DNA of 64,000 nucleotides from Escherichia coli. Its GTDB lineage: Bacteria > Pseudomonadota > Gammaproteobacteria > Enterobacterales > Enterobacteriaceae. The stretch lies in the NCBI RefSeq assembly GCF_003334815.1, contig NZ_QOWO01000018.1. One strand, 5' to 3'. Each line of letters begins with the position of its first letter. Within the stretch, counting starts at the first letter, position 1. The position numbers and the translations under genes are program-made. Below, one piece after another: positions 21,941 to 64,000 of the stretch. The notes under the pieces are model-generated. The model worked only from the letters and a program-made list of their open reading frames with translations, searched no databases and was not told the origin of the DNA.

Positions 21941-22219
21941 TTACCCAAAGAGCGCCGCGTGAGTTCCAGTTCTCTCAAATCGTAAAAGTTTATCGGTAAG
22001 TTTGTAAATCAGGATCCAGTCCGGTTCGACATGAGCATCGCGATAACCTTTCCATGAACCTTGCAGCGGGTGGTCTTTATAAACAGCTGGAAGCGGTAAA
22101 GTATTATTGATAAGAAGCGTCATAAGATATTTCAATTTATTCATATCCTTATGACGCTTTTGTGCAAGTTTTACATCCTTTGAATATTGTCCCGAGTATT
22201 CAATATCCCTTTGAATCAT
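21941..22219 (-). CDS. yafQ: Toxin YafQ (RelE/ParE-family ribosome-dependent mRNA interferase)
   Basis: 92-aa ORF directly downstream of dinJ; matches the YafQ toxin. Confidence 0.85.
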   Translation of the reverse strand: MIQRDIEYSGQYSKDVKLAQKRHKDMNKLKYLMTLLINNTLPLPAVYKDHPLQGSWKGYRDAHVEPDWILIYKLTDKLLRFERTGTHAALFG

Positions 22220-22221
22220 AT

Positions 22222-22482
22222 TTAAATTCCTAATTTATCAAATAAATCATCGGCGTCTTTGGCCTTATGAACATCAATGCCAGCTTCGCTGTTTTTGATT
22301 GATTGAATGGTTAATTGATTAGGCTCGCGTAAATCAAACGGCAATGCCTTTTCACGCGCGACCTTTGTGAGGGTTATGCGAACCAGGTCAGAGATGGTCA
22401 GCCCCATCCCGGCCAGTACGTCCGCTGCCTGATTCTTCAGATCTTCATCGATTCGGGCGCGAACAAACGCGTTAGCAGCCAT
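22222..22482 (-). CDS. dinJ: Antitoxin DinJ
   Basis: 86-aa ORF MAANAFVRARIDEDLKNQAADVLAGMGLTISD... (RHH-type antitoxin), 3 bp upstream of yafQ. Confidence 0.85.
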   Translation of the reverse strand: MAANAFVRARIDEDLKNQAADVLAGMGLTISDLVRITLTKVAREKALPFDLREPNQLTIQSIKNSEAGIDVHKAKDADDLFDKLGI

Positions 22483-22498
22483 TGGGGTATCTCCTGTG

Positions 22499-22514
22499 CT
22501 GTATATTTATTCAG
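22499..22514 (-). promoter_or_regulatory. LexA box (SOS operator) upstream of dinJ
   Basis: CTGTATATTTATTCAG fits CTGT-N8-ACAG with one mismatch, 17 bp upstream of the dinJ start. Confidence 0.6.
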
Positions 22515-22691
22515 CTTGAATTGTAGCTCAAATGAGCAACAGCGACAATCCATGAGTAATTTAATAAACGGATGTTTTTACATAATTAACTGAAATATAT
22601 ATGTTAATTTTATAATAATGGTTTATTAAGTTTGTTCAGAAACGATCCGGGATACACTGCAACATTAAAGCATGACCAGCCATTATTGAGT

Positions 22692-23441
22692 ATGTCCTTG
22701 CCGTCGATTCCATCCTTTGTATTGTCGGGATTACTGTTGATTTGTTTGCCGTTTTCTTCATTTGCCAGCGCCACCACATCACATATCTCTTTCAGCTACG
22801 CCGCCCGCCAGCGGATGCAAAACCGTGCGCGTTTATTAAAACAGTACCAAACTCATCTGAAAAAGCAGGCCAGCTATATTGTGGAAGGCAATGCCGAAAG
22901 CAAAAGGGCGCTACGCCAGCACAACCGGGAGCAGATAAAACAGCATCCAGAATGGTTTCCTGCTCCGCTCAAGGCGAGTGACAGACGCTGGCAGGCGCTG
23001 GCGGAAAACAACCACTTTTTAAGCAGCGACCATCTGCATAACATTACCGAAGTGGCGATTCACCGCCTGGAGCAGCAGCTTGGCAAGCCTTACGTCTGGG
23101 GCGGTACGCGGCCTGATAAAGGCTTTGACTGTAGCGGGTTGGTTTTTTATGCCTACAACAAGATCCTTGAGGCTAAGCTCCCGCGCACGGCCAATGAGAT
23201 GTACCACTATCGCCGGGCAACGATTGTGGCGAACAACGACCTGCGCCGGGGAGATTTGCTGTTTTTCCATATCCACAGCCGCGAGATAGCCGATCATATG
23301 GGCGTGTATTTGGGCGATGGGCAATTTATCGAGTCGCCACGTACCGGCGAAACCATTCGGATAAGCCGATTAGCCGAACCTTTCTGGCAGGACCATTTTT
23401 TGGGCGCGCGCAGGATTTTGACGGAAGAGACGATTTTGTAG
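22692..23441 (+). CDS. yafL: NlpC/P60-family peptidoglycan endopeptidase lipoprotein
   Basis: 249-aa product; NlpC/P60 catalytic Cys (GFDCSGLVFYAY) and His; ATG at 22692. Confidence 0.8.
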   Translation: MSLPSIPSFVLSGLLLICLPFSSFASATTSHISFSYAARQRMQNRARLLKQYQTHLKKQASYIVEGNAESKRALRQHNREQIKQHPEWFPAPLKASDRRWQALAENNHFLSSDHLHNITEVAIHRLEQQLGKPYVWGGTRPDKGFDCSGLVFYAYNKILEAKLPRTANEMYHYRRATIVANNDLRRGDLLFFHIHSREIADHMGVYLGDGQFIESPRTGETIRISRLAEPFWQDHFLGARRILTEETIL

Positions 23442-23525
23442 GACGGATAAGGCGTTTACGCCGCATCCGGCAGTTGTACGCAGGTGCCTGATGCGACGCT
23501 GGCGCGTCTTATCATGCCTACGAGC
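23441..23525. repeat. REP pair (BIME) upstream of rayT
   Basis: Two inverted REP palindromes. Confidence 0.75.
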
Positions 23526-23616
23526 CCGCGAATATTTGCGAGCCGCTTTCCCGATATAAAACAACCTCATTGCCAACCTTTCCTTTTCTTCTTACCGTTG
23601 AGAAAAAGGAGTCGCC

Positions 23617-24114
23617 ATGTCTGAATATCGTCGTTATTACATCAAGGGGGGAACATGGTTTTTCACGGTGAATTTACGAAATCGTCGAAGCCAACTTTTG
23701 ACCACCCAGTACCAGATGCTCCGTCACGCCATTATTAAAGTTAAGCGAGACAGGCCTTTTGAAATCAACGCCTGGGTCGTTTTGCCAGAGCATATGCACT
23801 GTATCTGGACATTACCTGAAGGCGATGATGATTTTTCCTCGCGCTGGCGGGAAATTAAAAAGCAATTTACCCATGCTTGTGGATTGAAAAATATCTGGCA
23901 ACCACGTTTTTGGGAGCACGCCATCCGCAATACCAAAGATTATAGGCATCATGTTGATTATATTTATATAAATCCAGTAAAGCATGGTTGGGTAAAGCAA
24001 GTGAGTGATTGGCCATTCTCAACGTTCCATCGCGATGTCGCGCGAGGGTTATATCCCATCGATTGGGCGGGGGACGTAACGGATTTTAGTGCCGGGGAGC
24101 GTATCATTTCATAA
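23617..24114 (+). CDS. rayT: REP-associated tyrosine transposase (RayT / TnpA-REP)
   Basis: 165-aa ORF with HuH-type motif (EHMHCIW) and conserved Tyr region; flanked on both sides by REP clusters. Confidence 0.85.
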   Translation: MSEYRRYYIKGGTWFFTVNLRNRRSQLLTTQYQMLRHAIIKVKRDRPFEINAWVVLPEHMHCIWTLPEGDDDFSSRWREIKKQFTHACGLKNIWQPRFWEHAIRNTKDYRHHVDYIYINPVKHGWVKQVSDWPFSTFHRDVARGLYPIDWAGDVTDFSAGERIIS

Positions 24115-24325
24115 TTGTGCGCAGATGCCTGATGCGACGCTAGCGCGTCTTATCATGCCTACAAACTTGTGCCGGATCGGTAGGCCGGATAAGGCGTTTA
24201 TGCCGCATCCGGCAGTTATGCGCAGATGCCTGATGCGACGCTGGCGCGTCTTATCATGCCTACAAACTTGTGCCTGAACGGTAGGACGGATAAGGCGTTC
24301 ACGCCGCATCCGGCAGTTGTGCACC
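24115..24325. repeat. REP/BIME cluster downstream of rayT (four REP units)
   Basis: Alternating-orientation REP palindromes; two near-identical about 100-bp units. Confidence 0.75.
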
Positions 24326-24337
24326 AATGCTGGATAC

Positions 24338-26431
24338 TTACATCAACGCCCCCATAATCTTCAACTCCAGCTCATCCGGCACTTCGTTATACGACAGCAC
24401 ATGCAGCCCCGGCGCAAACAACCTTGCATAACGCGCCAGCAAAGGGCGCAGCTGCGGTGGCACCAGCAGCACCGGGTCTTTCCCCGCCGCTTTCATCTGC
24501 TCTTTCACCTGTGGCATCGTACTCTGGAACTGGTTGAGCATATTCGGATCGACCGGCACGCTGTCGAGCATCACTTTCCCGCCCTGTTGCGCCTGATTCA
24601 CCACGTTGGTCAGCAGATTTTCCAGCTCATTATTCAGCGTATACACCGTCAGCTCCTGCTTGCGAACGAACGGATGGGTAATGCTGCGCCGCAATGCCAG
24701 GCGCACATCGGCCGCCAGCAGAATATGATCTTTCGTCACCGTGCTACTGGCGACCAGCACGGTGGCGATGGTGACGATATCGCGCAGGGAAACGCCTTCG
24801 GTCAGCAGCGTCCGGTACACTTTCAGCAACTGGCTGTAATTGAGCGCCGCGCTCAAATCTTCCGCCAGACGCGGTGCCGTCGACGATAAACGGTTATGCA
24901 ACTGCGTAATATCATCATAGTTAAACAAATCAGGAATATAGCTGCGCACAATCTTATTTACATGGGTAGCGATCACGCTGGCGCTGTCGATCACCTGATA
25001 CCCCATATTCAGCGCCTTCGCTTTCTGCGCCGCCTGGATCCAGGTGACCGGCATCCCGTACGCCGGGTCGTTCCCCTGCACGCCGTCAATCTCGCCGTAG
25101 GTTTCGCTGGAGGGCAGGGCCATCAGTTTATCCGCCGGAATATCCGCTTCATCAGCCTTTATGCCGTTGATGAAAATGGCGTACTGACTGGGCTTAAGGC
25201 GGAAGTTTTCCCGAATGCGGATCTCCGGCAGCAGCACGCCGTTGCCGTCAGAAATCACCTGCCGCACGCCGCGAATCCGCTGGGTGAGCGGGTTACCCTG
25301 TGCTTTGTCCACCAGCGCCACCAGTTTGTAACCGAGGCTTAAACTGATAGGCTCGATCAGCGGAATGGTTTCCCAACTGACCTGCTGCTCGCTGGTTTCG
25401 GTGATGGTGCGGGTCAGCGTTTCGAGGCTTTTCTCTTCCGCCTCCGCCGCCAGCGGCTGTTTGCTCATCCGCCAGCCGGTAAAACCAAGCAGGGCGCTGA
25501 ACAGCAAAAACGGCAGGTGCGGCATTCCCGGTACCACCGCCAGCACGAACATAATCCCGGTGGCGGTGTAGAGCACCGACGGGCTTGCCAGCAGCTGGTT
25601 ACGCACGTCATGGGCGATATCGCCGTTGTCGCTGACGCGGGTGACGATAATCGCCGCCGCGGTGGAGAGCAGCAGGGAAGGGATCTGCGCCACCAGGCCG
25701 TCGCCGATGGTCATCAGCACATACTGCTGGAAGGCAGCATCGGCGCTCAGGTTGTATTTGAAGATCCCGATACAGACGCCGCCGATCAGGTTGATCGCCA
25801 GAATCATCATCCCGGCGATGGCGTCCCCGCGCACAAACTTCGATGCCCCGTCCATCGCGCCGTAGAAATCGGCCTCGCTGGCAACATCTTTACGCCGGGT
25901 TTGCGCCTGCGCCTGGTTGATCAATCCGGCGTTAAGATCGGCGTCAATCGCCATCTGTTTGCCGGGCATCGCGTCTAAGGTAAAGCGGGCAGAAACCTCG
26001 GAAATACGCTCGGCCCCTTTGGTGACGACAATAAAGTTGATGATCATCAGGATGATAAACACCACGAAGCCGACGACAAAGTTGCCGCCGATCACCACCT
26101 GACCAAACGACTCAATCACCTTACCCGCCGCGCCCGCGCCGAGATGCCCGTGCAGCAGCACCACGCGCGTAGAAGCAACGTTAAGCGTCAGGCGCATTAA
26201 GGTGGTGATCAGCAAAATGGTCGGGAACAGGCTGAATTCCAGCGGTCGTTTCGCCGACACCGCCACCAGCAGCACCATCACCGCCAGCACAATGTTGAAG
26301 GTGAACAGAATATCCAGCAGCGCAGGCGGCAGCGGCAAAATAACCATCGCCAGAATACACAGGATCACCAGCGGCACGCCGAGATTGCCGCCGCGCAGCA
26401 GCGCGAGGAACGATTTAGTTGTTTTCGCCAT
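24338..26431 (-). CDS. lfhA: Lateral flagellar export apparatus protein, FlhA homologue
   Basis: 697-aa full-length FlhA-family protein (N-terminal TM domain, FHIPEP region). Confidence 0.85.
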   Translation of the reverse strand: MAKTTKSFLALLRGGNLGVPLVILCILAMVILPLPPALLDILFTFNIVLAVMVLLVAVSAKRPLEFSLFPTILLITTLMRLTLNVASTRVVLLHGHLGAGAAGKVIESFGQVVIGGNFVVGFVVFIILMIINFIVVTKGAERISEVSARFTLDAMPGKQMAIDADLNAGLINQAQAQTRRKDVASEADFYGAMDGASKFVRGDAIAGMMILAINLIGGVCIGIFKYNLSADAAFQQYVLMTIGDGLVAQIPSLLLSTAAAIIVTRVSDNGDIAHDVRNQLLASPSVLYTATGIMFVLAVVPGMPHLPFLLFSALLGFTGWRMSKQPLAAEAEEKSLETLTRTITETSEQQVSWETIPLIEPISLSLGYKLVALVDKAQGNPLTQRIRGVRQVISDGNGVLLPEIRIRENFRLKPSQYAIFINGIKADEADIPADKLMALPSSETYGEIDGVQGNDPAYGMPVTWIQAAQKAKALNMGYQVIDSASVIATHVNKIVRSYIPDLFNYDDITQLHNRLSSTAPRLAEDLSAALNYSQLLKVYRTLLTEGVSLRDIVTIATVLVASSTVTKDHILLAADVRLALRRSITHPFVRKQELTVYTLNNELENLLTNVVNQAQQGGKVMLDSVPVDPNMLNQFQSTMPQVKEQMKAAGKDPVLLVPPQLRPLLARYARLFAPGLHVLSYNEVPDELELKIMGALM

Positions 26432-27554
26432 CCAGTTTAAGCACCTCTTTGGGAATGGAAATATGTCTGTTCAGGGCCGGGCGCGGCTGTGCACCCTCGC
26501 GCCAGTGTTTCATTTGCAGGACGTAGGTCAGAACGTGGGCGATGGCCCGGTAAAGCTGAAACGGAATTTGCTGGTTCACCTGGGTGGTGTAGTAAACCGA
26601 GCGCGCCAGTCGCGGGAACTCGACCACTTCCACCTGATTCTCAGCGGCGACCTGGCGAATATAGAGGGCGATTTCATCGGTGCCTTTCGCCACCACAAAC
26701 GGCGCGGCGGCGCGCGACGAGTCATACTGCAACGCCACGGCGTAGTGGGTCGGGTTGGTGATCACCACGTTGGCTTTCGGCACCACTTTGCGAATTTGCC
26801 CCATCGCCAACTGCCGTTGCAGACGCCGCACGCGCGCCTTCACTTCCGGCTTGCCTTCCTGGTTTTTATACTCTTCTTTCAGCTCCTGTTTGGTCATCTT
26901 CAGCCCTTTGGTAAACAGGGCTTTCGCCAGCGGCACGTCGATTAACGCAAAGAAGATAAACAGGATGACAAAGTTGCGCATCACGCAGGCGTAGAGCGAT
27001 AAACCCTCATTCATCGCCAGTTTGAACGGTAGCGCCTGCAGGCCGAGAAAGGCGGCAAAGTTATTGCGCAGGCTTACCCACAGCATCACCAGCACCACCA
27101 CCGACTTCACCGTCATCTTTCCCGTTTCCGCCAGATGTTCACTGGAAAACAGCCGCCCAATGCCTTTTAACGGGCTGATTTTGCTGAAATCCGGGAGGAT
27201 TTTTTTCGGCAGAAACAGCCAGCCGCCGGGCACCAGCGAAGAGAGTAGCGCGGCAGCGGGCATCGGCAGCAAGGTGAGAATAAACTTGCCGAGTATTAAC
27301 AGGTGATGGCGCAGAAACTGGCCGATCACCTCCGGGTTATTAATCTCCTGCGCGTACTGATGCACGCTGATAAAACTCTCGCGCACAAAATCGGCATACC
27401 ACGGGAAGCTGCTGGAGATCACCACAAACGCCGCAAACAGGCTCGCCGCCAGCCCCATATCCTTCGAGCGCGGCAGTTGCCCCTCTTCACGCGCTTTACG
27501 CAGCTTTTGCGCCGAGGGTTTTTCTGTTTTTTCTTCGCTGCTGCTATCCGCCAT
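26415..27554 (-). CDS. lfhB: Lateral flagellar export switch protein, FlhB homologue
   Basis: 379-aa ORF with FlhB N-terminus (EKTEKPSAQKLRKAREEG) and NPTH autocleavage motif. Confidence 0.85.
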   Translation of the reverse strand: MADSSSEEKTEKPSAQKLRKAREEGQLPRSKDMGLAASLFAAFVVISSSFPWYADFVRESFISVHQYAQEINNPEVIGQFLRHHLLILGKFILTLLPMPAAALLSSLVPGGWLFLPKKILPDFSKISPLKGIGRLFSSEHLAETGKMTVKSVVVLVMLWVSLRNNFAAFLGLQALPFKLAMNEGLSLYACVMRNFVILFIFFALIDVPLAKALFTKGLKMTKQELKEEYKNQEGKPEVKARVRRLQRQLAMGQIRKVVPKANVVITNPTHYAVALQYDSSRAAAPFVVAKGTDEIALYIRQVAAENQVEVVEFPRLARSVYYTTQVNQQIPFQLYRAIAHVLTYVLQMKHWREGAQPRPALNRHISIPKEVLKLDGENN

Positions 27555-28326
27555 AGTGACCTTTCAGCGCGTCGAGTTGCTGCAACACAAAATTCGCCAG
27601 ATGCAGATAGTGATCCGGCAGGTTGTAGAGCAGGGTGGCAAAGCAGACCAGCCCCGCCAGCATGTTGATGGGAAAACCGAGTGAAAAAAGGTTCAGCGGC
27701 GGCGCAATGCGGTTGAGCAGGCCAAAGCAGCCCTGCACAATCAGCATGATAAAAGTGGTTGGCAGCGCCAGCAGCGATGCGGACGCCAGCACCCAGCTAA
27801 AGGCCAGCGCGATGGTGCGCAGGGTTTGCGGATGCAGCGCGTTGCCAATCGGCCAGTAGGTAAAGCCCTTATACAGCACACTCACCAGCAGCAGATGCCC
27901 GTCCATGGCAAAAAACAGCAGGATCGCGTAGACGTTGATGAGCTCCGCCAGCACGGTGGTCGATGCGCCACTGCTCGGGTCGTTCATCACCGCCATGCTC
28001 ATCCCCATATTGAACGAGAGAATTTGCCCGGCCAGCTGTAGCGCCAGAAACAAAAACTGAAACATCAGCCCGAATAACATGCCCCATAAAATTTGCTCCA
28101 CCGTCAGGATCAGGCTGTTGAGTGAAAGCAGGTCGTGGGGAATGGGATGCGGAATTAACGGCGTGATGATGATTGCCAGCGCCAGCGACAAAATAATCCG
28201 CACGCGCACGGTCAGGGCGCTGTTATCCAGCACTGGCACATAGCGCAGAAACGCCATAATGCGCACAAAGGGAAACCACAGCCCCAGCGCCAGATCCATC
28301 AGTTGCGTAACGTCGCTTGTGCGCAT
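27544..28326 (-). CDS. lfiR: Lateral flagellar export apparatus protein, FliR homologue
   Basis: Polytopic membrane protein; ATG at 28326 next to the lfiQ stop. Confidence 0.8.
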   Translation of the reverse strand: MRTSDVTQLMDLALGLWFPFVRIMAFLRYVPVLDNSALTVRVRIILSLALAIIITPLIPHPIPHDLLSLNSLILTVEQILWGMLFGLMFQFLFLALQLAGQILSFNMGMSMAVMNDPSSGASTTVLAELINVYAILLFFAMDGHLLLVSVLYKGFTYWPIGNALHPQTLRTIALAFSWVLASASLLALPTTFIMLIVQGCFGLLNRIAPPLNLFSLGFPINMLAGLVCFATLLYNLPDHYLHLANFVLQQLDALKGHYGG

Positions 28327-28327
28327 C

Positions 28328-28600
28328 TTAATGCACCAGCAGGGCGGCCTGGGTAAACAGGTGAATGCAGAGATCATGCAACTGGATAATCATCCATTTG
28401 CCGCACACGCCCAGCACCACCAGCGTGACAATCAGCCTCGGCAAAAAGCTCAGGGTCTGTTCGTTAATCTGCGTTACCGCCTGGAACACGCTCACCAGCA
28501 GGCCGACCAGCAAACTCGGCACCACCAGTACCGAAACCAGCAAAATCACTACTTTTATGCCGCTGGCGACAATGTCGGCGGCAACGTCTACGGTCAACAT
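28328..28600 (-). CDS. lfiQ: Lateral flagellar export apparatus protein, FliQ homologue
   Basis: 90-aa two-TM protein typical of FliQ. Confidence 0.8.
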   Translation of the reverse strand: MLTVDVAADIVASGIKVVILLVSVLVVPSLLVGLLVSVFQAVTQINEQTLSFLPRLIVTLVVLGVCGKWMIIQLHDLCIHLFTQAALLVH

Positions 28601-28602
28601 AA

Positions 28603-29355: not shown

Positions 29356-29723
29356 GGTGCCAGGTCGTTGATATCGCGGGTGTTAAATTCCAGCACGCGC
29401 AGGCCGTACTTCTCGTTGACCACCACCACTTCCGCTTTGCCCAGCAGGATATTGTTCACTTTAATATCCAGCGGCTCCCCGGCGAGTTTATCCAGCTCAA
29501 TCACCGTGTCGTCGTCGATGTTAAGGAGGTCGGCTAACATGATCTCCACCGACGACACTTCCAGCGTTAAGGTCACCGGAATGCGTTTTAGCAGCGTCAT
29601 CGAGTCGGAAAAACGGTCTTCCAGGCGGGTGACCAGCGTTTCAGCGTCGGCGGATTTTGCGACAGGCGCAACTTCATCGGTGAGGCCAAAATCCCCGGCT
29701 AAAATATCTTCTTGCTTACTCAT
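29352..29723 (-). CDS. lfiN: Lateral flagellar motor switch protein, FliN homologue
   Basis: C-terminal SpoA/FliN domain (ELDKLAGEPLDIKVNNILLGKAEVVVVNEKYGLRV); ATG at 29723. Confidence 0.8.
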   Translation of the reverse strand: MSKQEDILAGDFGLTDEVAPVAKSADAETLVTRLEDRFSDSMTLLKRIPVTLTLEVSSVEIMLADLLNIDDDTVIELDKLAGEPLDIKVNNILLGKAEVVVVNEKYGLRVLEFNTRDINDLAP

Positions 29724-30740: not shown

Positions 30741-30833
<93 letters not shown>

Positions 30834-49951: not shown

Positions 49952-50175
<224 letters not shown>

Positions 50176-52583: not shown

Positions 52584-53561
52584 ATGCAGGTCGGACTTAC
52601 TTCTTCGTCACTCGCCACCGGCAGCGCGCATAGCGCTGCGGTATCGTCGTCAACCGTTGCGCCCACTCAGGCGGTGCGGCAAAAACTCCCGGCGACGGCG
52701 AGTGAATATCCGGCCTCGCCGCTGATTACCACTCGCCCGCAGCGTTACAGCGTGCAGCTTAACGACCAGCTCACCACGTTGCAGCAGGCGGATCACTACC
52801 TCGGGCAACTGGAGCAGCAGTTGCTCGATTATCGTCACAGCCAGCGTAAGGGCGGGCAGGCGCAGAGTACGGCGCTGATGCAGATGCTGGACAAACGCAC
52901 CGCGCTTTCCGGCGGTGCGGTAGACCGCCAGTTGCAGCCAGTGTTGCAGGGCGAGGCGCGGGTGACTTTTCACTCGCCGGATCTGGCGAATCTCGTACAC
53001 AACCCCACGCCGGGAACGCGCATGTTCAGCGTCTCTGACGGGCGGCAGACTCAGCTTTCGGCGGTGATGCTGTCTGAGGATGACAGCGCCGCGCAGTATC
53101 AGACGCGGCTGACCAACGCCCTGCGCCGCGTGGGTGTGCAACTGCATCAGCAAGCGGACGGCATCAGCTTCTCCACCACCGAAAAGCAGTGGCCCAACAT
53201 TGAAAGCACCTTAAGCGTGCGCACCGATGGTGATAAGTCGGCGTTTATGCCGCTAAAAACCTTTGCCGAACCGTCGCAGGCCGAGCGTTTAGCGCAAAGC
53301 CTGCAACAGGGCGGGGCAGGGATTTCCCAGATGTTAGAAAACATTAATCAGCAGCGCGCGCAAATGGCGGTGCAGCAGGAAAAAGCCCGCCAGTTGATCG
53401 ACGGCATGTCCCGCTTCCCGCAAACGGAAAACGCCGTGCAGGCGTCGGAAAATCTCGGCGGCGTGTTGGATAGCGCGAATCATAACTATCAGGTGTTATT
53501 GCAGGCGGTGAATGGTCAGGCGCGAATTTCCAGCCAGACGGTGAGGAGTTTATTGGGATAA
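52584..53561 (+). CDS. lafW: Flag-2 hypothetical protein (Gln-rich, unknown function)
   Basis: 325-aa ORF after lfgL; no recognisable motifs; symbol from expected Flag-2 gene order only. Confidence 0.5.
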   Translation: MQVGLTSSSLATGSAHSAAVSSSTVAPTQAVRQKLPATASEYPASPLITTRPQRYSVQLNDQLTTLQQADHYLGQLEQQLLDYRHSQRKGGQAQSTALMQMLDKRTALSGGAVDRQLQPVLQGEARVTFHSPDLANLVHNPTPGTRMFSVSDGRQTQLSAVMLSEDDSAAQYQTRLTNALRRVGVQLHQQADGISFSTTEKQWPNIESTLSVRTDGDKSAFMPLKTFAEPSQAERLAQSLQQGGAGISQMLENINQQRAQMAVQQEKARQLIDGMSRFPQTENAVQASENLGGVLDSANHNYQVLLQAVNGQARISSQTVRSLLG

Positions 53562-53564
53562 TTA

Positions 53565-53615
53565 TCGGTAGGCCGGATAAGACGCGTTTAGCGTCGCATC
53601 CGGCATATATTGGCA
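53565..53615. repeat. Single REP element between convergent lafW and lafZ
   Basis: gtaggccggataagacgcgtttagcgtcgcatccggca. Confidence 0.7.
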
Positions 53616-53619
53616 CTCA

Positions 53620-54462
53620 TCAGCACTTCTGCACAGTATTTAACAACTTCTCTAAATTCTGATACATCGCGCTATTAATATCGCTATTCTGCCACTCATC
53701 CACATTAAAGGTTAATTGCCAGCTACCGTTGCACTGGTTGCGCAGAACAATATCACTCTCCAGTCGGTTACGAACATATTTATAATAGGTTGTCATTGTC
53801 ATATTATGCGCTGACAATAAATTATCGAGTTTGTCTTTTCCTGGTGCGAGGGTTTGTGACAGTAACGGTGCGGAATTATTTTCTTTTCCAGAACTAAGGT
53901 GAAATATTTTTATTCTTGGGCTGTTAATTGACTCTTTTACCAGTTGCGGGGCGTCAGGTGTACTTTTCAAGTGTGAATACCCCACGGTCGAGCCAATAAA
54001 TATAACAGCCGCGGTCAACGCTAACCCCATCAGTCCTTTATGTTTTTTTCTAACAGGCACAGGCAGGGTTGTCGAAGATATCTCTCCTGGCACAGTTTCC
54101 TGTACCTGGTTGGTAATAATCAGCGCTTCCGCAGGCGATGACTCCGGCAAAGACACATACTCTTTATTGCACAGGTAACCTTTTTTCGGGATGGTTTTAA
54201 TAATGTTCTGTTGTTTGCCATCATCGTCGATAGCAACGCGTAATGCATGTATCGCCGTCGGCAGGCTGTTACCGCCGACAATGCGGTTCTTCCATACTTC
54301 GGCACATAAATAAGATCGCGATAAAACCACATCGGCATTTTTTGCTAATGTTTCCAGCAAAATAAAATGGTATTCGCCGAGACGACGTGTTTCACCCGTT
54401 TCGCAATGTATTAAGGCATTAAGCGACGGGTCCATCCGCCAGTTGTTGATAATAATACTCAT
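53620..54462 (-). CDS. lafZ: ToxR/CadC-like transmembrane transcriptional regulator (OmpR-type winged helix, single TM, periplasmic domain)
   Basis: ATG at 54462 verified codon by codon; N-terminal winged-helix region then TM helix LMGLALTAAVIFIGSTVGY; divergent from lafA. Confidence 0.6.
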   Translation of the reverse strand: MSIIINNWRMDPSLNALIHCETGETRRLGEYHFILLETLAKNADVVLSRSYLCAEVWKNRIVGGNSLPTAIHALRVAIDDDGKQQNIIKTIPKKGYLCNKEYVSLPESSPAEALIITNQVQETVPGEISSTTLPVPVRKKHKGLMGLALTAAVIFIGSTVGYSHLKSTPDAPQLVKESINSPRIKIFHLSSGKENNSAPLLSQTLAPGKDKLDNLLSAHNMTMTTYYKYVRNRLESDIVLRNQCNGSWQLTFNVDEWQNSDINSAMYQNLEKLLNTVQKC

Positions 54463-56152: not shown

Positions 56153-57469
56153 ATGATCAACCCAAGAACCATTGCGCAAGAAATCGCTTATGCAGATGTC
56201 GCCACTCAGGCGGCAAACTTGCAGGAGAAGCAAACGGAGCTGGATGCCGAAAGCAGCGGCCTGGACTCGCTCAGCTCGGCGTTGAGCGATTTCCAGAGCG
56301 CCGTGGATGCGCTAAACAGCGATACCGACGGCCCGGTGACCTTCGCTGCCACCAGCAATAATGACTCGGCGACCGTTTCCGCTAACTCGCAGGCGCAGGC
56401 GGGAAGCTACTCGTTTTTCGTTGAACAACTGGCGCAGGGGCAGCAGACCACGTTCAGTATGGGTGATGACACCTTTTCTGCGACGGGGACGTTCGAAATG
56501 ACCATGGGCGACAGCACCATGGATATTGATCTGGCGGCGGCGGATCAGAACGGTGACGGCGACGGTTTTATCGACGCCAGTGAACTGGTGAATGCGATTA
56601 ACGACTCCGATGACAATCCGGGCGTGTCGGCTGCGCTGGTAAAAACCGACGGCACCACCACGATTATGCTCACCTCGGATAGCACCGGGGCGCAGAGCGC
56701 GTTTTCGGTGAGCGTAACGGGGCATGATGCCAGCAACGATAGCGCCAGCGCGCCCGTTGCCACGGATGTTTCCTCCGCTCAGGACGCGATTATTCATCTC
56801 GGTAGCGCCACAGGGCCTGAGATCACCAACAGCAGCAATACATTTGATGATGTGATCCCCGGCGTCACCATGACTTTCACCGAAGTCAGCGATTCTGACA
56901 GCGATCTCACTACCTTTAACATCAGCGAAGATTCCAGCGCCAGTCAGGAGAAAGTACAGACCTTTGTCGATGCCTATAACACCTTGATTGATACGGTTGA
57001 TTCACTGACTACTCATGGTGATGACAGTACCAGCGCCGGGGTATTTGCAGGCGACGCCGGACTCAATTCACTGGCGAACCAGCTCGATGACATCGCCCAT
57101 GCCAACTACAACGGCGTGTCGATTGTTGACTATGGCATCACGCTTGATTCTCACGGCCACTTACAGATTGACTCCGACCAGTTCAACGACGAAATGGCGA
57201 AAAATCCTGACGGTCTGACCTCTATTTTCGTTGGCGACAACAGCATGGTGGCGCAGATGGACGACCTGATTAACACCTACACGGACTCCAGCAACGGCAT
57301 CATCACCCTGCGCCAGCAGAACATTGACGATCAGATGAGCAAAATTCAGGACGAAGGCGATCAGCTTACCGATACCTATAACGCCAACTACGACCGTTAT
57401 CTCGAGGAGTACACCAACACGCTGGTCGAGGTGTACACCATGAAAGCCAGCATGGCGGCATTCGCGTAA
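56153..57469 (+). CDS. lafB: Lateral flagellar filament cap protein, FliD homologue (HAP2)
   Basis: 438-aa ORF; FliD-like coiled-coil termini and Ser/Thr/Asp-rich central domain. Confidence 0.8.
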   Translation: MINPRTIAQEIAYADVATQAANLQEKQTELDAESSGLDSLSSALSDFQSAVDALNSDTDGPVTFAATSNNDSATVSANSQAQAGSYSFFVEQLAQGQQTTFSMGDDTFSATGTFEMTMGDSTMDIDLAAADQNGDGDGFIDASELVNAINDSDDNPGVSAALVKTDGTTTIMLTSDSTGAQSAFSVSVTGHDASNDSASAPVATDVSSAQDAIIHLGSATGPEITNSSNTFDDVIPGVTMTFTEVSDSDSDLTTFNISEDSSASQEKVQTFVDAYNTLIDTVDSLTTHGDDSTSAGVFAGDAGLNSLANQLDDIAHANYNGVSIVDYGITLDSHGHLQIDSDQFNDEMAKNPDGLTSIFVGDNSMVAQMDDLINTYTDSSNGIITLRQQNIDDQMSKIQDEGDQLTDTYNANYDRYLEEYTNTLVEVYTMKASMAAFA

Positions 57470-57491
57470 CTCAGAAGGAATATCCCTAAAG

Positions 57492-57884
57492 ATGTACCAA
57501 GTACAGGACGGCTATTCACAATATAAAGAGATCGATCTCGCGGCGCGTACTGCGGCGGCATCGCCTCTGGAACTGGTGCTGGTGCTGTTTTCTGGCCTGA
57601 TGGACGAGCTGGAACGCGCCAAAAGCCATATTGAAGGGCGGCGTTTCGAGAAGAAAGCCCAGAGCATCAATAAATGCATCGACATTCTCAATGCGCTTAC
57701 CAGTTCGCTGGAGTTTGAAACCGGCGGTGAGCTGGTGGTCAACCTTTCGCGACTCTATGACCACTGCGTTTACCGATTGTATGAGGCCAGCGGCGAATTA
57801 TCGGCAGAGAAAATCGATGAAGTGATGCTGATCTTAAGCAACCTGCGCGAAGGCTGGGAAGGGCTTTCGGGCAAGCTGGGTTAA
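57492..57884 (+). CDS. lafC: Flagellin chaperone, FliS homologue
   Basis: 130-aa ORF with FliS-family core (ELVLVLFSGLMDEL...LSRLYDHCVYRL). Confidence 0.8.
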   Translation: MYQVQDGYSQYKEIDLAARTAAASPLELVLVLFSGLMDELERAKSHIEGRRFEKKAQSINKCIDILNALTSSLEFETGGELVVNLSRLYDHCVYRLYEASGELSAEKIDEVMLILSNLREGWEGLSGKLG

Positions 57885-57888
57885 GACG

Positions 57889-58200
57889 ATGGAAAAACAA
57901 CGCAGGCAACTTTTCGCACTGGTCGAGGCGATGAATGAAGCCCTCGACAAGCAACGCTGGCGACGCCTTCCGGCACTGCATCAGCAGTTGATGCGCCAGT
58001 TTCACGATTACGCGGCGGCGGAAACCGACGCGGCGCAGTTCTGTGCGGTAAAGGCGCATTTGTACGGCGCGTTTAATGCCCTGATTAAACGGCGCGAGCA
58101 GCGCGCAGAAGTGTTGAAGGCGCGTATGGAACAGCATCAGCGGCATCAGGAAGGTGTGCTCGCCTACTCAATTGTTAATTTACTTTCGGAGAAGTCATGA
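57889..58200 (+). CDS. lafD: Small helical protein (possible FliT-like chaperone)
   Basis: 103-aa ORF following the FliS homologue; position analogous to fliT. Confidence 0.5.
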   Translation: MEKQRRQLFALVEAMNEALDKQRWRRLPALHQQLMRQFHDYAAAETDAAQFCAVKAHLYGAFNALIKRREQRAEVLKARMEQHQRHQEGVLAYSIVNLLSEKS

Positions 58201-59258
58201 ATCCGGCATTGCTTGCCACGCTCGGAACGCTTGCGGAAACCGCTTCGTTGAAGGCGGATATTTTACCGCCGGTGAGCGGTGAAAACGCGCCCGCGTTTAC
58301 CCTGCCGAAAATGGCGGTCGCGGCGGTGGCGGAGCGCGTTCATAGCGCTAAAACCAGTCAGCAACAGGCGACGCGCCCGCAGGAGAACGATCCGGTGGCG
58401 ATGCAGGCGCTAATGGCGCTGTTACTTCCACAACCTGCCGCGCCGCATCAGCACACGCCGCAGCCGCGAAACGTCGCAACATCGCCGGTTATCCAGCAAT
58501 TGACGAAAGCGGTGGTGCAAAACGCGCCGCAACGCCAGACGCAACAGCAGGAACTCACGCCGTTGCCGCCGCAGTTGCAGGAACTGATCAGTCAGTTGCC
58601 ACAGGCGAAGCCCGAACAGCAGGCCAGACTGGCGACTTACGCCAGTGAAGATTTACATGCCATTGCGCCGACGCAGCCGCGCGTTTCAACACAGCCAGCT
58701 CGCCCAAAACCTGAACTAACCCGTGTGACCGCGCGCCCGCAGGTCGAGCGTAAAACGGAAAAAGTGCCGGACAGCGAACCGGTTATTGCGCGTGCGGTGT
58801 TGCAGGTTAAGACGCCGGAGCTGCTCAGCGAGCATCAGGAGATTGTCGCCAAACCAGCCACGCTTTCGATGGACGAACTGGGCGAAAAACTGACGACGCT
58901 TTTGAAAGATCAGATCCACTTTCAGCTCAACAAACAACAGCAGATCTCCACCATCCGTCTCGATCCACCGTCGCTTGGCAAGCTCGAGATCGCCGTACAA
59001 CTCGACAACGGCAAACTGATGGTGCACATCGGCGCGAACCAAAGTGAAGTTTGCCGCGCGTTACAGCAGTTTAGCGACGATCTCCGCCAGCATCTGACGG
59101 CGCAAAATTTTATGGAGGTGAACGTACAGGTCTCCTCCGAAGGGCAGTCGCAGCAACAACAACAGTCGGGCCATCAGCAGGAAGAGGTGAGTGCCGCCTT
59201 ACAGCTTGATGATGCGCCTCAATTTCAACAGAACGAATCCGTTTTGATCAAAGTGTAA
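58197..59258 (+). CDS. lafE: Hook-length control protein, FliK homologue
   Basis: 353-aa Pro/Gln-rich protein with FliK-like C-terminal domain. Confidence 0.7.
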   Translation: MNPALLATLGTLAETASLKADILPPVSGENAPAFTLPKMAVAAVAERVHSAKTSQQQATRPQENDPVAMQALMALLLPQPAAPHQHTPQPRNVATSPVIQQLTKAVVQNAPQRQTQQQELTPLPPQLQELISQLPQAKPEQQARLATYASEDLHAIAPTQPRVSTQPARPKPELTRVTARPQVERKTEKVPDSEPVIARAVLQVKTPELLSEHQEIVAKPATLSMDELGEKLTTLLKDQIHFQLNKQQQISTIRLDPPSLGKLEIAVQLDNGKLMVHIGANQSEVCRALQQFSDDLRQHLTAQNFMEVNVQVSSEGQSQQQQQSGHQQEEVSAALQLDDAPQFQQNESVLIKV

Positions 59259-59265
59259 AGGCAAT

Positions 59266-59733
59266 ATGAAGAAAATCGTGGTGGCGGGCGTGGTCAGCGC
59301 CGTTCTGGCGTTGGTGGTGGGGGCCGGAGCTGGATGGGGTGTCTGGCATCATTATGCCGGAAAAGGAAAACCGACTGCCGCCGCGCAGACGGAAACGGTG
59401 GAAACCCTGGATGAAAGCAAAAGCGTGTTTGTGACGTTGCCGGAAACCATTGTCACGCTGCATGACAACAACGGCGCGGACCATTATTTGTCGGCGGAAT
59501 TAGTGATGGTGGTCGCCAGTGACAAAGAAGCGGAAAAAATAAAACATCAGGAGCCGCTGTATCAAAGTATTGCGGTTGAATGCCTGACGGAAATGAAATT
59601 TGAAGATTTGCGTGGCATGAAAATATCCGCCATCCGCAAACTCATTTCTGACGCGTTAAAGAAAGATCTTCAGCGTCGCAAAATGAGCGCACCGTATAAG
59701 GATTTGCTGGTGAAAAAAGTGGTCTTCCAGTAA
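59266..59733 (+). CDS. lafF: Flagellar basal-body-associated protein, FliL homologue
   Basis: 155-aa ORF with a single N-terminal TM helix and FliL-like domain. Confidence 0.7.
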   Translation: MKKIVVAGVVSAVLALVVGAGAGWGVWHHYAGKGKPTAAAQTETVETLDESKSVFVTLPETIVTLHDNNGADHYLSAELVMVVASDKEAEKIKHQEPLYQSIAVECLTEMKFEDLRGMKISAIRKLISDALKKDLQRRKMSAPYKDLLVKKVVFQ

Positions 59734-59752
59734 TCACCAGGCGGATATAAAT

Positions 59753-60469
59753 ATGCTACAGGATGTATTCGAGTCGGAAGAATTTGCTGCCGCGCCGGTA
59801 TTAACCCCGCAGCAGGAGAGCCACTACTTGCAGGCCTATTTACCGTTGGTGCGTAAAGTGGTGCGGCAACTTGCCCCGCAGTGTAATTGCATTATTGATC
59901 GTCAGGATATGGAACAAACGGCGTTAATGGGGCTGCTTAATGCCATCCGTCGCTACGGGCTGCCGGACGAAGGTTTTGCGGGCTATGCCGTGCACCGTAT
60001 TCGCGGCGCGATCCTGGATGAGCTGCGCGCTCTCGACTGGCGACCGCGCCAGCTGCGACAGAAATATCATCAGATGAAAGATCTGATTCGCGAAACGCGC
60101 AAAAAACTGGGGCACGAACCGGAGTGGTCAGAACTGGCCGTGGAAGGGATCTCGCATGAAGATTATCTCGAATATCAGCAACTGGAAGGGGCGGAAACGC
60201 TCGCCAGCCTGGACGAACTGCTGAACGGCGAAGGGCCTGGCATTCTGCTTGCTGGCAGGGAGCTGGAAGATCAGTTTGTCACCCAGCAAATGCTGCAACA
60301 GGCGCTTTCACAATTAAGCGAAAAAGAGCAACTGATCCTCTCCATGTATTACCAGCATGAGATGAATCTCAAAGAGATTGCGCTGGTATTAGGGCTAACC
60401 GAGGCCCGAATTTGTCAACTGAATAAACAGATCGCGCAGAAAATTCGTGATTTTGTCTATCCGAATTAA
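59753..60469 (+). CDS. lafS: Lateral flagellar sigma factor (sigma-28/FliA family)
   Basis: 238-aa ORF with sigma-70 region 2 and C-terminal region 4 HTH (LKEIALVLGLTEARICQL). Confidence 0.85.
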   Translation: MLQDVFESEEFAAAPVLTPQQESHYLQAYLPLVRKVVRQLAPQCNCIIDRQDMEQTALMGLLNAIRRYGLPDEGFAGYAVHRIRGAILDELRALDWRPRQLRQKYHQMKDLIRETRKKLGHEPEWSELAVEGISHEDYLEYQQLEGAETLASLDELLNGEGPGILLAGRELEDQFVTQQMLQQALSQLSEKEQLILSMYYQHEMNLKEIALVLGLTEARICQLNKQIAQKIRDFVYPN

Positions 60470-60481
60470 AGTGAAGAAATC

Positions 60482-61345
60482 ATGCAAAAAATATTAGGTT
60501 TACTGGTGGTGCTCGGCTGCGTATTTGGCGGTTATTTTGAAGCGGGCGGGCAATTAGTGGCTATCTGGCAACCGGCGGAAATGATCATTATTTTGGGTGC
60601 CGGTTTCGGGGCGATGATTATTGGTAACCCGAAACATGTGCTGAAAGAGATTGCCCATCAAATTAAAGGCGTAATCAGTAAAAAACAGCTCGGGCCGGAG
60701 TTTCAGCGCCAGCTATTAATGTGCCTGTATGAGTTACTCGAAATGGTGCAAAACGGTGGTCTGCGCATGCTGGATCAACATATTGAGCAACCGGAAGAGA
60801 GCACCATTTTCCAGAAATACCCGCTGGTGTTAACCCAGAAGCGGCTGGTGACCTTTATTGCCGATAACTTTCGCCTGATGGCGATGGGTAAAATCGACGC
60901 CCATGAACTGGAAGGCATTCTCGATCAGGAACTGGACACCGCGGAAGAGTCGCTGCTAACGCCGTCGCGCTCGCTGCAACGTACCGCCGAAGCGATGCCG
61001 GGGTTTGGCATTTGTGCGGCGGTGTTGGGCATCATCATCACCATGCAGTCGATTGACGGCTCTATCGCCCTGATTGGCCTGAAAGTGGCGGCAGCGCTGG
61101 TGGGGACATTTTTAGGCGTCTTTATCTGCTACTGCCTGATGGACCCACTCGCCAACGCCATGGAACAACAGGCGCGGGCAGAACATTCTTTGCTGGAATG
61201 CGTGCGTACCGTGCTGGAGGCGCAGGCAGGCGGCAAACCGACGCTGCTGGCGGTGGACGCCGGGCGTAAGCTACTGCATCTGGCGTCCAAACCGACCTTC
61301 GCCAACCTCGACGCGTGGGTGAATGCGATGCTGGAGCAAGAATAA
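60482..61345 (+). CDS. lafT: Lateral flagellar motor stator protein, MotA homologue
   Basis: 287-aa four-TM protein with MotA-like cytoplasmic loop. Confidence 0.8.
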   Translation: MQKILGLLVVLGCVFGGYFEAGGQLVAIWQPAEMIIILGAGFGAMIIGNPKHVLKEIAHQIKGVISKKQLGPEFQRQLLMCLYELLEMVQNGGLRMLDQHIEQPEESTIFQKYPLVLTQKRLVTFIADNFRLMAMGKIDAHELEGILDQELDTAEESLLTPSRSLQRTAEAMPGFGICAAVLGIIITMQSIDGSIALIGLKVAAALVGTFLGVFICYCLMDPLANAMEQQARAEHSLLECVRTVLEAQAGGKPTLLAVDAGRKLLHLASKPTFANLDAWVNAMLEQE

Positions 61346-61347
61346 GC

Positions 61348-62271
61348 ATGAGAAAGACGGGTAACCGCCGCGATCGTGGGGCAAAAACCACCATCGTCCG
61401 GCGGCAGATCAAAAAGAATCATGCCGGGCACCACGGCGGGGCGTGGAAGGTGGCGTTCGCCGACTTTACTTTGGCAATGATGGCGCTGTTTATGACGCTG
61501 TGGATTGTCAACAGCGTCAGTAAATCCGAGCGTGAAAGCATTATCGCCGCGCTGCACGGGCAGTCGATTTTTAACGGTGGTGGGCTGTCGCCGTTAAATA
61601 AAATCAGCCCGTCTCATCCGCCAAAACCTGCCACCGTGGCGGTGCCGGAAGAGACGGAGAAAAAAGCGCGTGATGTGAATGAGAAAACGGCGCTGCTGAA
61701 GAAGAAATCCGCCACCGAGCTTGGTGAGCTGGCAACCAGTATCAACACCATTGCCCGTGATGCGCATATGGAAGCGAATCTGGAGATGGAGATTGTTCCC
61801 CAGGGATTACGCGTGCTGATTAAAGACGACCAGAACCGCAATATGTTTGAACGCGGCAGCGCGAAGATTATGCCGTTCTTTAAAACGCTGCTGGTGGAGC
61901 TCGCGCCAGTGTTCGACTCGCTCGATAATAAAATTATTATTACCGGGCATACCGATGCGATGGCCTACAAAAACAATATCTACAACAACTGGAACCTTTC
62001 GGGTGACCGCGCGCTTTCGGCTCGTCGGGTGCTGGAAGAGGCCGGAATGCCGGAAGATAAAGTGATGCAGGTAAGCGCAATGGCGGACCAGATGCTGCTG
62101 GATTCCAAAAATCCGCAAAGCGCGGGCAACCGGCGCATTGAGATTATGGTGCTGACCAAAAGTGCGTCCGATACGCTGTATCAATACTTTGGTCAGCATG
62201 GGGATAAAGTGGTGCAGCCGCTGGTGCAAAAGCTGGATAAGCAGCAGGTGCTTTCGCAGCGAACGCGTTAA
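61348..62271 (+). CDS. lafU: Lateral flagellar motor stator protein, MotB homologue (OmpA-like C-terminus)
   Basis: ATG at 61348; N-terminal TM helix, C-terminal OmpA-like peptidoglycan-binding motif (ITGHTD...NWNLSGDRALSARRVL). Confidence 0.8.
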   Translation: MRKTGNRRDRGAKTTIVRRQIKKNHAGHHGGAWKVAFADFTLAMMALFMTLWIVNSVSKSERESIIAALHGQSIFNGGGLSPLNKISPSHPPKPATVAVPEETEKKARDVNEKTALLKKKSATELGELATSINTIARDAHMEANLEMEIVPQGLRVLIKDDQNRNMFERGSAKIMPFFKTLLVELAPVFDSLDNKIIITGHTDAMAYKNNIYNNWNLSGDRALSARRVLEEAGMPEDKVMQVSAMADQMLLDSKNPQSAGNRRIEIMVLTKSASDTLYQYFGQHGDKVVQPLVQKLDKQQVLSQRTR

Positions 62272-62307
62272 ATGCTGAATCTTTACGCATTTCTCAAACC
62301 CTGAAAT

Positions 62308-62327
62308 CACTGTATACTTTACCAGTG
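62308..62327 (+). promoter_or_regulatory. LexA box (SOS operator) upstream of dinB
   Basis: cactgtatactttaccagtg contains CTGT-N8-CCAG, 15 bp upstream of the dinB start. Confidence 0.7.
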
Positions 62328-62341
62328 TTGAGAGGTGAGCA

Positions 62342-63397
62342 ATGCGTAAAATCATTCATGTGGATATGGACTGCTTTTTCGCCGCAGTGGAGATGCGCGA
62401 CAATCCCGCCCTGCGCGATATCCCTATTGCTATTGGCGGCAGCCGCGAACGTCGGGGGGTGATCAGCACCGCCAATTATCCCGCGCGTAAATTTGGCGTA
62501 CGTAGCGCTATGCCGACAGGGATGGCGCTCAAATTATGCCCACATCTCACCTTGCTTCCGGGGCGCTTTGACGCCTACAAAGAAGCCTCAAATCATATCC
62601 GTGAAATCTTCTCGCGCTACACCTCGCGCATTGAACCGTTGTCACTGGATGAGGCTTATCTCGATGTCACCGATAGCGTCCATTGCCACGGTTCTGCGAC
62701 CCTCATCGCCCAGGAAATCCGCCAGACAATCTTCAACGAGCTGCAACTGACGGCGTCTGCGGGCGTGGCACCAGTAAAGTTTCTCGCCAAAATCGCCTCC
62801 GACATGAATAAACCCAACGGCCAGTTTGTGATTACGCCGGCAGAAGTTCCGGCATTTTTACAAACCTTACCGCTGGCAAAAATCCCCGGCGTCGGCAAAG
62901 TCTCAGCGGCAAAACTGGAAGCGATGGGGCTGCGGACCTGCGGTGATGTACAAAAGTGTGATCTGGTGATGCTGCTTAAACGCTTTGGCAAATTTGGCCG
63001 CATTTTGTGGGAGCGTAGTCAGGGGATTGACGAACGCGATGTTAACAGCGAACGGTTGCGAAAATCCGTCGGCGTGGAACGCACGATGGCGGAAGATATT
63101 CATCACTGGTCTGAATGTGAAGCGATTATCGAGCGGCTGTATCCGGAACTTGAACGCCGTCTGGCAAAGGTAAAACCTGATTTACTGATTGCTCGCCAGG
63201 GGGTGAAATTAAAGTTCGACGATTTTCAGCAAACCACCCAGGAGCACGTCTGGCCGCGGCTGAATAAAGCTGATCTAATCGCCACCGCGCGTAAAACCTG
63301 GGATGAACGCCGCGGCGGGCGCGGTGTGCGTCTGGTGGGGCTGCATGTGACGTTGCTTGACCCGCAAATGGAAAGACAACTGGTGCTGGGATTATGA
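62342..63397 (+). CDS. dinB: DNA polymerase IV (Y-family translesion polymerase)
   Basis: 351-aa [36 protein letters not shown]... with Y-family catalytic motifs. Confidence 0.9.
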
Positions 63398-63448
63398 TGT
63401 ATACTATTATGTATATTCTGGTGTGCATTATTATGAGGGTATCACTGT

Positions 63449-63742
63449 ATGCATCGAATTCTCGCTGAAAAATCGGTCAATATCACTGAGTTACGTAAAA
63501 ACCCAGCTAAATACTTTATTGATCAACCGGTTGCGGTTCTTTCTAATAATCGCCCCGCAGGATATCTCTTAAGTGCCAGCGCATTCGAAGCGTTAATGGA
63601 CATGCTTGCTGAACAAGAGGAGAAAAAGCCCATAAAGGCGCGCTTCCGTCCAAGTGCTGCAAGATTAGAGGAAATTACACGCCGCGCTGAACAATATCTT
63701 AATGATATGACGGATGATGATTTCAATGACTTTAAGGAATAA
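63449..63742 (+). CDS. yafN: Antitoxin YafN (Phd/YefM family)
   Basis: 97-aa ORF MHRILAEKSVNITELRKNPAKYF... followed 2 bp later by the toxin gene. Confidence 0.85.
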   Translation: MHRILAEKSVNITELRKNPAKYFIDQPVAVLSNNRPAGYLLSASAFEALMDMLAEQEEKKPIKARFRPSAARLEEITRRAEQYLNDMTDDDFNDFKE

Positions 63743-63744
63743 GG

Positions 63745-64000
63745 ATGCGGGTATTCAAAACAAAACTTATTCGCCTGCAACTTACAGCAGAGGAACTTGA
63801 TGCGTTAACGGCGGATTTTATTTCCTATAAGCGTGACGGTGTTTTGCCAGATATATTTGGTCGCGATGCACTCTACGACGACTCCTTTACCTGGCCATTA
63901 ATCAAATTTGAGCGAGTTGCTCATATTCATCTGGCAAATGAGAATAATCCATTTCCGCCACAGTTGCGCCAATTCAGCAGAACGAATGACGAAGCGCATT
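63745..64000 (+). CDS. yafO: Toxin YafO (ribosome-dependent mRNA interferase), 5' partial at window end
   Basis: ATG at 63745 with AAGGA RBS; translation MRVFKTKLIRLQLTAEELDALTADFISYKRDGVLPDIFGRDALYDD...; runs off the window. Confidence 0.75.
   Translation, partial: MRVFKTKLIRLQLTAEELDALTADFISYKRDGVLPDIFGRDALYDDSFTWPLIKFERVAHIHLANENNPFPPQLRQFSRTNDEAH

Follow-up and report, generated by a model that had tools for sequence, protein, structure and literature searches.

The Flag-2 (lateral flagellar) locus is known from Escherichia coli 042, W and Crooks, and K-12 carries an fhiA/mbhA scar in its place (Ren et al. 2005, as cited in PMC6993521 and PMC3032704). Two toxin-antitoxin modules of the same chromosomal region have been studied separately. 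DinJ represses the dinJ-yafQ promoter and LexA binds there too (PMC8138530), but induction by DNA damage was not observed for this operon in E. coli in spite of LexA binding at its promoter (PMC4996492). Mitomycin C induction of yafNO requires the upstream dinB promoter, while a proximal promoter is autoregulated by YafN (PMC2814082). Here we analysed a stretch of 64,000 nucleotides of E. coli chromosome (contig NZ_QOWO01000018.1, hereafter the window), which holds an intact Flag-2 cluster with dinJ-yafQ on one side and dinB-yafN-yafO on the other. A sequence-only reading of this DNA had described the two as SOS-linked modules that bracket Flag-2. The layout is already known and is textbook K-12 gene content, as that reading had itself remarked. 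We are highly confident that it represents an ordinary E. coli neighbourhood, in which dinJ-yafQ, yafNO and Flag-2 vary in presence and absence independently of one another and are neighbours by chance. The identities, box positions and ranks, promoter overlap, cassette boundaries, K-12 breakpoints and frequencies reported below come from our own analysis, and statements on LexA binding, SOS induction via the dinB promoter and toxin mechanisms are taken from the literature.

The frequencies of the three elements were obtained by megablast over 5,426 complete E. coli genomes, using window positions 60900-61499 as the Flag-2 probe. The dinJ-yafQ pair was found in 3,340 genomes and yafNO in 2,847. 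At least one of the two modules is present in 4,178 genomes, dinJ-yafQ or the Flag-2 fragment in 4,016, yafNO or the Flag-2 fragment in 3,751, and any of the three in 4,643. Among the Flag-2-positive genomes (~1,318), both modules occur in ~203 (15%), dinJ-yafQ only in ~439, yafNO only in ~211 and neither in ~465 (35%), whereas the 4,108 Flag-2-negative genomes comprise 1,806 with both (44%), 892 with dinJ-yafQ only, 627 with yafNO only and 783 with neither. Expressed per module, dinJ-yafQ is carried by 49% of Flag-2-positive versus 66% of Flag-2-negative genomes, and yafNO by 31% versus 59%; evenly spaced 60-row samples give matching proportions. These counts offer no evidence of a positive association of the modules with Flag-2, and nothing in the analysis suggests that Flag-2 is acted on or stabilised by them. 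Directly after Flag-2, Citrobacter youngae has yafL-dpaA-yafJ; dinJ-yafQ and rayT are absent there. Because only ~15% of Flag-2-positive genomes carry both modules, and because C. youngae has no dinJ-yafQ neighbour, bracketing is not a general property of Flag-2. The meaning that the sequence-only reading had implied for it is thus not borne out by the frequency data, which point to a coincidental neighbourhood.

Four points weigh against this interpretation. The Flag-2 count was derived from 1,312-1,322 "places" and the classes were obtained by inclusion-exclusion, with an error of ~10 genomes per cell. The genome collection has a clonal bias, and the frequencies are raw megablast unions. Flag-2 and the modules show a weak negative association, which is uncorrected for phylogeny and may reflect only phylogroup structure. 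Finally, no intrinsic terminator was predicted in the gap between lafU and dinB (62272-62341), and in Flag-2-positive strains transcription of the lafTU operon might therefore run on into dinB-yafNO; such read-through, if true, would be a real functional link between Flag-2 and the module.

In order to establish the layout, the RefSeq annotation of the near-identical strain BUCT2930 was transferred to the open reading frames (ORFs) of the window, and protein identities were additionally assessed with NCBIfam models and PDB matches. The flanks of the Flag-2 cluster are 99.97% identical to K-12 MG1655, and the host is a phylogroup-A-like strain still holding Flag-2. The order gmhA-yafJ-dpaA-[yafQ-dinJ]-yafL-rayT-[Flag-2]-dinB-[yafN-yafO]-yafP is the usual E. 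coli chromosomal neighbourhood. On the minus strand, yafQ (21941-22219) encodes a RelE-family ribosome-dependent mRNA interferase toxin (TIGR00053, 120.2 bits, cutoff 87.25; PDB 4ML2, E 6e-61, with 4Q2U also matching) and dinJ (22222-22482) a RelB/DinJ antitoxin and autorepressor (TIGR02384, 83.4 bits, cutoff 45.65; PDB 4Q2U chain A, E 5e-51, with 4ML0 also matching). On the plus strand, dinB (62342-63397) encodes DNA polymerase IV (NF002677, 547 bits) and yafN (63449-63742) the antitoxin (NF007300, 196.7 bits, cutoff 99). The toxin gene yafO (63745-64000, plus strand) was assigned by annotation and NCBIfam; it runs past the window end with 85 of its 132 codons present, and these N-terminal 85 residues score 146.7 bits against a cutoff of 153 set for the whole protein. 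The identities and positions put forward for dinJ-yafQ and dinB-yafN-yafO thus agree across annotation, NCBIfam and PDB, and no contradicting evidence was found for any of the five genes.

Flag-2 extends from lfhA to lafU (24338-62271 by BUCT2930 annotation compared with the window ORFs). It comprises the contiguous set lfhAB-lfiRQPNM-lafK-lfiEFGHIJ, lfgNMABCDEFGHIJKL and lafWZABCDEFSTU, placed between rayT/yafL and dinB. The BUCT2930 Flag-2 genes map one-to-one onto window ORFs, and no pseudogenes are marked in the BUCT2930 record; judged from their reading frames, all Flag-2 genes of the window appear intact. The loci of 042, W and Crooks likewise lie between rayT and dinB and have their genes in the same lfhA-to-lafU order. 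Unlike the window, strain 042 is reported to have a frameshifted lfgC, which is intact here, and a toxin-antitoxin pair between lafW and lafZ (PMC3032704); there is none in the window, where the lafW-lafZ gap (53561-53620) measures 59 bp. The window also differs from this group of loci in having no Mu prophage.

On the right of Flag-2, dinB starts 70 bp past lafU; the term "bracket" is loose on the left, where the dinJ start codon (22482) and the lfhA stop codon (24338) are 1,855 bp apart. This interval holds yafL (22692-23441, plus strand; an NlpC/P60 (C40) peptidase gene) and rayT (yafM; 23617-24114, plus strand; a REP-associated tyrosine transposase gene), both identified by annotation and NCBIfam, with repetitive extragenic palindromic (REP) copies on either side of rayT (23438-23521 and 24115-24322). 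On the other side of yafQ lies dpaA (21045-21785, minus strand; BUCT2930 annotation). REP-like repeats related to those flanking rayT were also observed in Flag-2 intergenic regions, at 30746-30830 and 49957-50129. The REP-bearing gap from the rod-binding gene (end 49943) to lfgK (start 50247) is 118 bp shorter in the window than in BUCT2930.

The dinJ-yafQ module has the layout of a type II antitoxin-toxin operon, with dinJ (22482-22222) preceding yafQ (22219-21941) on the same strand and a 2-nt gap between them. From identity to the characterised K-12 proteins we infer that YafQ acts as a ribosome-dependent endoribonuclease neutralised by DinJ. The operon and its promoter DNA are identical to those of K-12 dinJ-yafQ (b0226-b0225), with the same LexA box and gene order: neither of the two mismatches found in 7,062 bp of left flank falls inside the operon, and the window proteins match the solved DinJ-YafQ complex 4Q2U. 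Only the context differs, in that an intact Flag-2 lies 1.85 kb away in the window.

LexA sites were scored with a heterology-index (HI) matrix derived from 19 canonical E. coli LexA boxes, from which those of dinB and dinJ were omitted on purpose; the training boxes were taken from the literature, and absolute HI values are approximate. The two LexA boxes quoted in the sequence-only reading were each found once in the window, CTGTATATTTATTCAG at 22499-22514 upstream of dinJ and CTGTATACTTTACCAG at 62310-62325 upstream of dinB, as the cores of the 20-mers TGCTGTATATTTATTCAGCT (22497-22516) and CACTGTATACTTTACCAGTG (62308-62327). These 20-mers rank first and second among ~64,000 positions, with HI values of ~7.2 and ~11.5, the window mean being 40.7 (standard deviation 6.4). 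Both are near the LexA consensus TACTGTATATATATACAGTA and both overlap a predicted promoter or start. The loose pattern CTGT-N9-CAG is not enriched in the window (7 found, 5.8 expected), and the motif alone is therefore weak evidence; among its matches, only the dinJ and dinB boxes have an AT-rich spacer. The site ranked third, AACTGGATAATCATCCATTT (28380-28399, HI ~11.6), lies in coding sequence at the lfiR/lfiQ boundary, has no CAG arm and is probably due to chance.

Upstream of dinJ, a consensus scan predicts a sigma-70-like promoter, TTGTCG-17-TACAAT (22520-22548, minus strand). The dinJ box begins 6 nt downstream of its -10 element TACAAT and therefore covers the expected transcription start. 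In the reading favoured here, dinJ-yafQ is a type II operon transcribed from a DinJ-repressed promoter with a LexA box over its expected transcription start. The box is unchanged in the 7 dinJ-positive E. coli loci compared. It could be argued that the dinJ sequence is a chance match with no regulatory role, which would leave only one module truly SOS-linked, and the failure to observe DNA-damage induction in E. coli (PMC4996492) together with the chance frequency of the loose motif would fit this idea. We consider it improbable, however, since the HI of the 20-mer falls among those of genuine boxes, uvrA and lexA for example, and is the best in 64 kb, since the box occupies the place described relative to the predicted -10 element and is invariant across divergent haplotypes, and since LexA binding to the dinJ operator has been reported (reviewed in PMC8138530 and PMC4996492). 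Moreover, Salmonella dinJ, whose LexA box lies 14 nt from the ATG, is induced 7.8-fold by nalidixic acid (PMC8072944).

At dinB, the predicted sigma-70-like promoter is TTCTCA-16-TATACT (62291-62318, plus strand; consensus scan), and its -10 element TATACT overlaps the LexA box. The box starts 38 bp past lafU, within the 70-bp gap between the lafU stop codon (62271) and the dinB ATG (62342). It is unchanged across 11 E. coli loci and also in Escherichia albertii, despite 7 nearby substitutions in the latter. The order of yafN and yafO, the score of YafN above its equivalog cutoff and the identity of the DNA to that of K-12 identify a type II YafN-YafO module. Compared with K-12 dinB-yafN-yafO-yafP (b0231-b0234), there are zero mismatches over window positions 61506-64000, and both the yafN-proximal promoter region and the dinB LexA box, with its overlap of the -10 element, are the same. 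The differences are that yafO ends at the window edge and that a full-length lafU lies upstream of dinB, where K-12 has the mbhA remnant. The module is a 759-bp cassette that follows the dinB stop codon and precedes the start codon of yafP, and in this position it is co-transcribed from the LexA-repressed dinB promoter; in addition it has its own YafN-autoregulated promoter. A putative LexA box at the yafN promoter (PMC2814082) was also considered; the best site there has an HI of ~25, far from functional boxes, which fits the result of the same study that SOS induction comes from the dinB promoter. The designation "SOS-linked" is consequently solid for yafNO, though via the dinB promoter only (PMC2814082), and only partly established for dinJ-yafQ, where LexA binds but no induction was seen for the E. 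coli operon (PMC4996492).

The boundaries of both modules could be read from genomes that lack them. Where yafNO is missing, the dinB stop overlaps the start of yafP by ATGA (…GGATTATGAATAAC…), whereas in yafNO-positive genomes a segment of 759 bp lies between two copies of ATTATGA. One copy of this 7-bp direct repeat provides the dinB stop and the other the yafP start, and an insert between the two copies therefore keeps both reading frames. The left copy lies at 63391-63397 (plus strand) and the right copy ~150 bp past the window end; in locus L002 of our comparison set, the copies are at 8948-8954 and 9707-9713. On the other side of Flag-2, the variable segment (21926-22755) covers dinJ-yafQ, the spacer between dinJ and yafL, and ~64 nt at the 5' end of yafL. 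Genomes without dinJ-yafQ have this segment exchanged en bloc for ~330 bp of unrelated sequence, which includes a different yafL 5' end. A third module, hicBA, takes the place of rayT and the REP elements (window 23442-24337) adjoining lfhA in many strains, whether Flag-2-positive or -negative (L003 3199-3826, L005 3890-4517, L011 8390-9017), which makes this site one where small cassettes are exchanged. A replacement of dinJ-yafQ by hicBA was considered and ruled out, since the annotated regions show that rayT and the REP elements are replaced and that hicBA co-occurs with dinJ-yafQ.

Two further observations concern the modules themselves. Among the 8 loci that reach far enough downstream of the window, yafNO is present where rtcB-prfH is truncated (ykfJ/prfH pseudogenes; K-12, BUCT2930, O157:H7 9234 and T-HYM1) and absent where rtcB-prfH is intact (M9, EC14, AVS0501 and NN5); the two groups of loci are L001 (45923-46646), L002 (10468-11001), L008 and L010 versus L006, L007, L009 and L011. 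Frameshifted toxin genes with an intact antitoxin were seen for yafQ in O157:H7 9234 (L008 5142-5418) and for both yafQ and yafO in XH992 (L012 43531-43808 and 351-750). Toxin decay with the antitoxin kept is the usual pattern in chromosomal toxin-antitoxin modules.

The two modules do flank the site at which K-12 lost Flag-2, as had been claimed, and the junction could be compared directly. MG1655 positions 243000-254000 align to window positions 18980-26041 and 61500-64000, with the two real mismatches of the left flank mentioned above and 0 in the right flank. The interval missing from K-12 is 26042-61505 (35,464 bp), with the left breakpoint in lfhA codon 131 and the right breakpoint in lafU codon 53. 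The left breakpoint repeat, GTTGAT (26036-26041), has its GAT at 26039-26041 within a 12-bp palindrome, TGATGATCATCA; the right one, GTGGAT (61500-61505), has its GAT at 61503-61505. The parental sites are thus GTTGAT followed by GATCATCAG in lfhA and GTGGAT followed by TGTCAACAG in lafU, and the K-12 junction reads ...AAAGTTGAT joined to TGTCAACAG..., leaving the 3' parts of lfhA and lafU as the scar. The exact microhomology at the junction is the 3-bp GAT, inside an 11/15 imperfect repeat. The window therefore shows, letter for letter, the ancestral sequence at both breakpoints of the K-12 deletion. In a few strains (NZ_CP028752.1 and NZ_CM168012.1), IS1 joins yafQ to motA/lafU; this is a distinct, IS-mediated loss of most of Flag-2, in which dinJ was lost as well.

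Toxin-antitoxin systems stabilise superintegrons and some genomic islands. That the two modules are addiction elements holding the 38-kb Flag-2 island in the chromosome could be suggested by the clustering of modules here (dinJ-yafQ, yafNO and the hicBA that abuts lfhA in many strains) and by the module inside Flag-2 of strain 042 (PMC3032704), but it is very improbable, given that each module is rarer in Flag-2-positive genomes, that more than a third of these have neither, that the C. youngae Flag-2 has no dinJ-yafQ neighbour, and that the K-12-type deletion leaves both modules untouched, so that neither could penalise the loss of Flag-2.

The same junction was found in every Flag-2-negative row of two 60-row samples, including K-12, O157:H7 and APEC O1 strains. 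In order to follow its history, the arms of 6 scar alleles and 7 intact alleles were compared over 1,704 bp of lfhA and 1,892 bp of lafU-dinB. The lfhA'-lafU' junction occurs on at least 4-6 E. coli flanking haplotypes, which are 3-6% different right up to the junction; the scar alleles share no common haplotype adjoining it, and several scar haplotypes also occur Flag-2-intact with identical flanks (0-1 difference in 3.6 kb). For example, K-12 and AVS0501, both with the scar, show 14 differences on one side and 12 on the other within 400 bp of the junction, beginning at -12 nt and +80 nt, whereas the K-12 scar arms have 0-1 difference from the Flag-2-positive window and BUCT2930, and AVS0501 has 0 differences from the Flag-2-positive strain 439 in 3,596 bp. 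Likewise, M9 and EC14 have 1 difference in 1,892 bp, and NN5 and PEC395 have 0 differences in the proximal 400 bp. The E. coli lfhA haplotypes are themselves unusually deep, with a synonymous divergence of 0.20-0.25 and a nucleotide difference of 4.5-6% (24338-26041 compared with L008, L009, L012 and L013), which suggests old or introgressed alleles.

That lfhA/lafU remnants occur in several genera, and that there are "direct repeats" at the ends, was already noted (PMC6993521). With a degenerate junction pattern and one genome per species, we obtained matches in E. albertii, Citrobacter sp. MGH106 and Kluyvera ascorbata, and a search with a 579-residue FlhA fragment revealed an identical scar in Atlantibacter subterranea; together with the E. 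coli alleles, the scar loci are L002, L006, L008-L011, L014, L016, L019 and L020. The scars outside E. coli have the same codon positions and align without gaps across the junction, at 76-92% (species-level divergence). The promoterless lfhA remnant retains an open frame of 567 codons, with no stop or frameshift, in Citrobacter, Kluyvera and the E. coli scar alleles; E. albertii is the exception, its frame not being open. The ratio of nonsynonymous to synonymous divergence (dN/dS; Nei-Gojobori method) of the retained lfhA part, calculated for comparable alleles, is 0.02-0.05 in every pair: 0.019 between the Citrobacter and Kluyvera scars (dS above 1), 0.020 between scars within E. coli (dS 0.25) and 0.036 between intact alleles. 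The scar therefore does not represent an old pseudogene in neutral decay.

It is possible, although we regard it as tentative, that Flag-2 has been removed repeatedly by a precise, site-preferring and perhaps enzyme-mediated excision. Alternatively, a single ancient deletion may have been kept polymorphic across species, its arms overwritten by recombination from intact alleles, or the remnant genes may themselves be functional and under selection. The haplotype comparison revealed no divergence jump exactly at the breakpoint, and no evidence of a recombinase site was found at the breakpoints. A separately mobile Flag-2 interior was also considered. Divergence does fall inside Flag-2, but single nucleotide polymorphisms (SNPs) continue at +25 and +34 nt, and there is therefore no discontinuity at the left junction. 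Similarly, the SNP-poor zone at the breakpoints was rejected as a recombinase site, because low polymorphism is general in these membrane-helix-coding stretches and interior SNPs lie 9-18 nt from the right breakpoint.

For the region as a whole, the outcome is a clean negative: the toxin-antitoxin modules, Flag-2, hicBA and rayT segregate independently, and the "bracketing" of Flag-2 is therefore not to be read as functional linkage. As to the scar, no haplotype and selection analysis of it was found in the accessible literature. A scar that is shared between genera and bears a signature of purifying selection could have a bearing on the ways in which Enterobacteriaceae switch off large, costly gene clusters or maintain them as polymorphisms.

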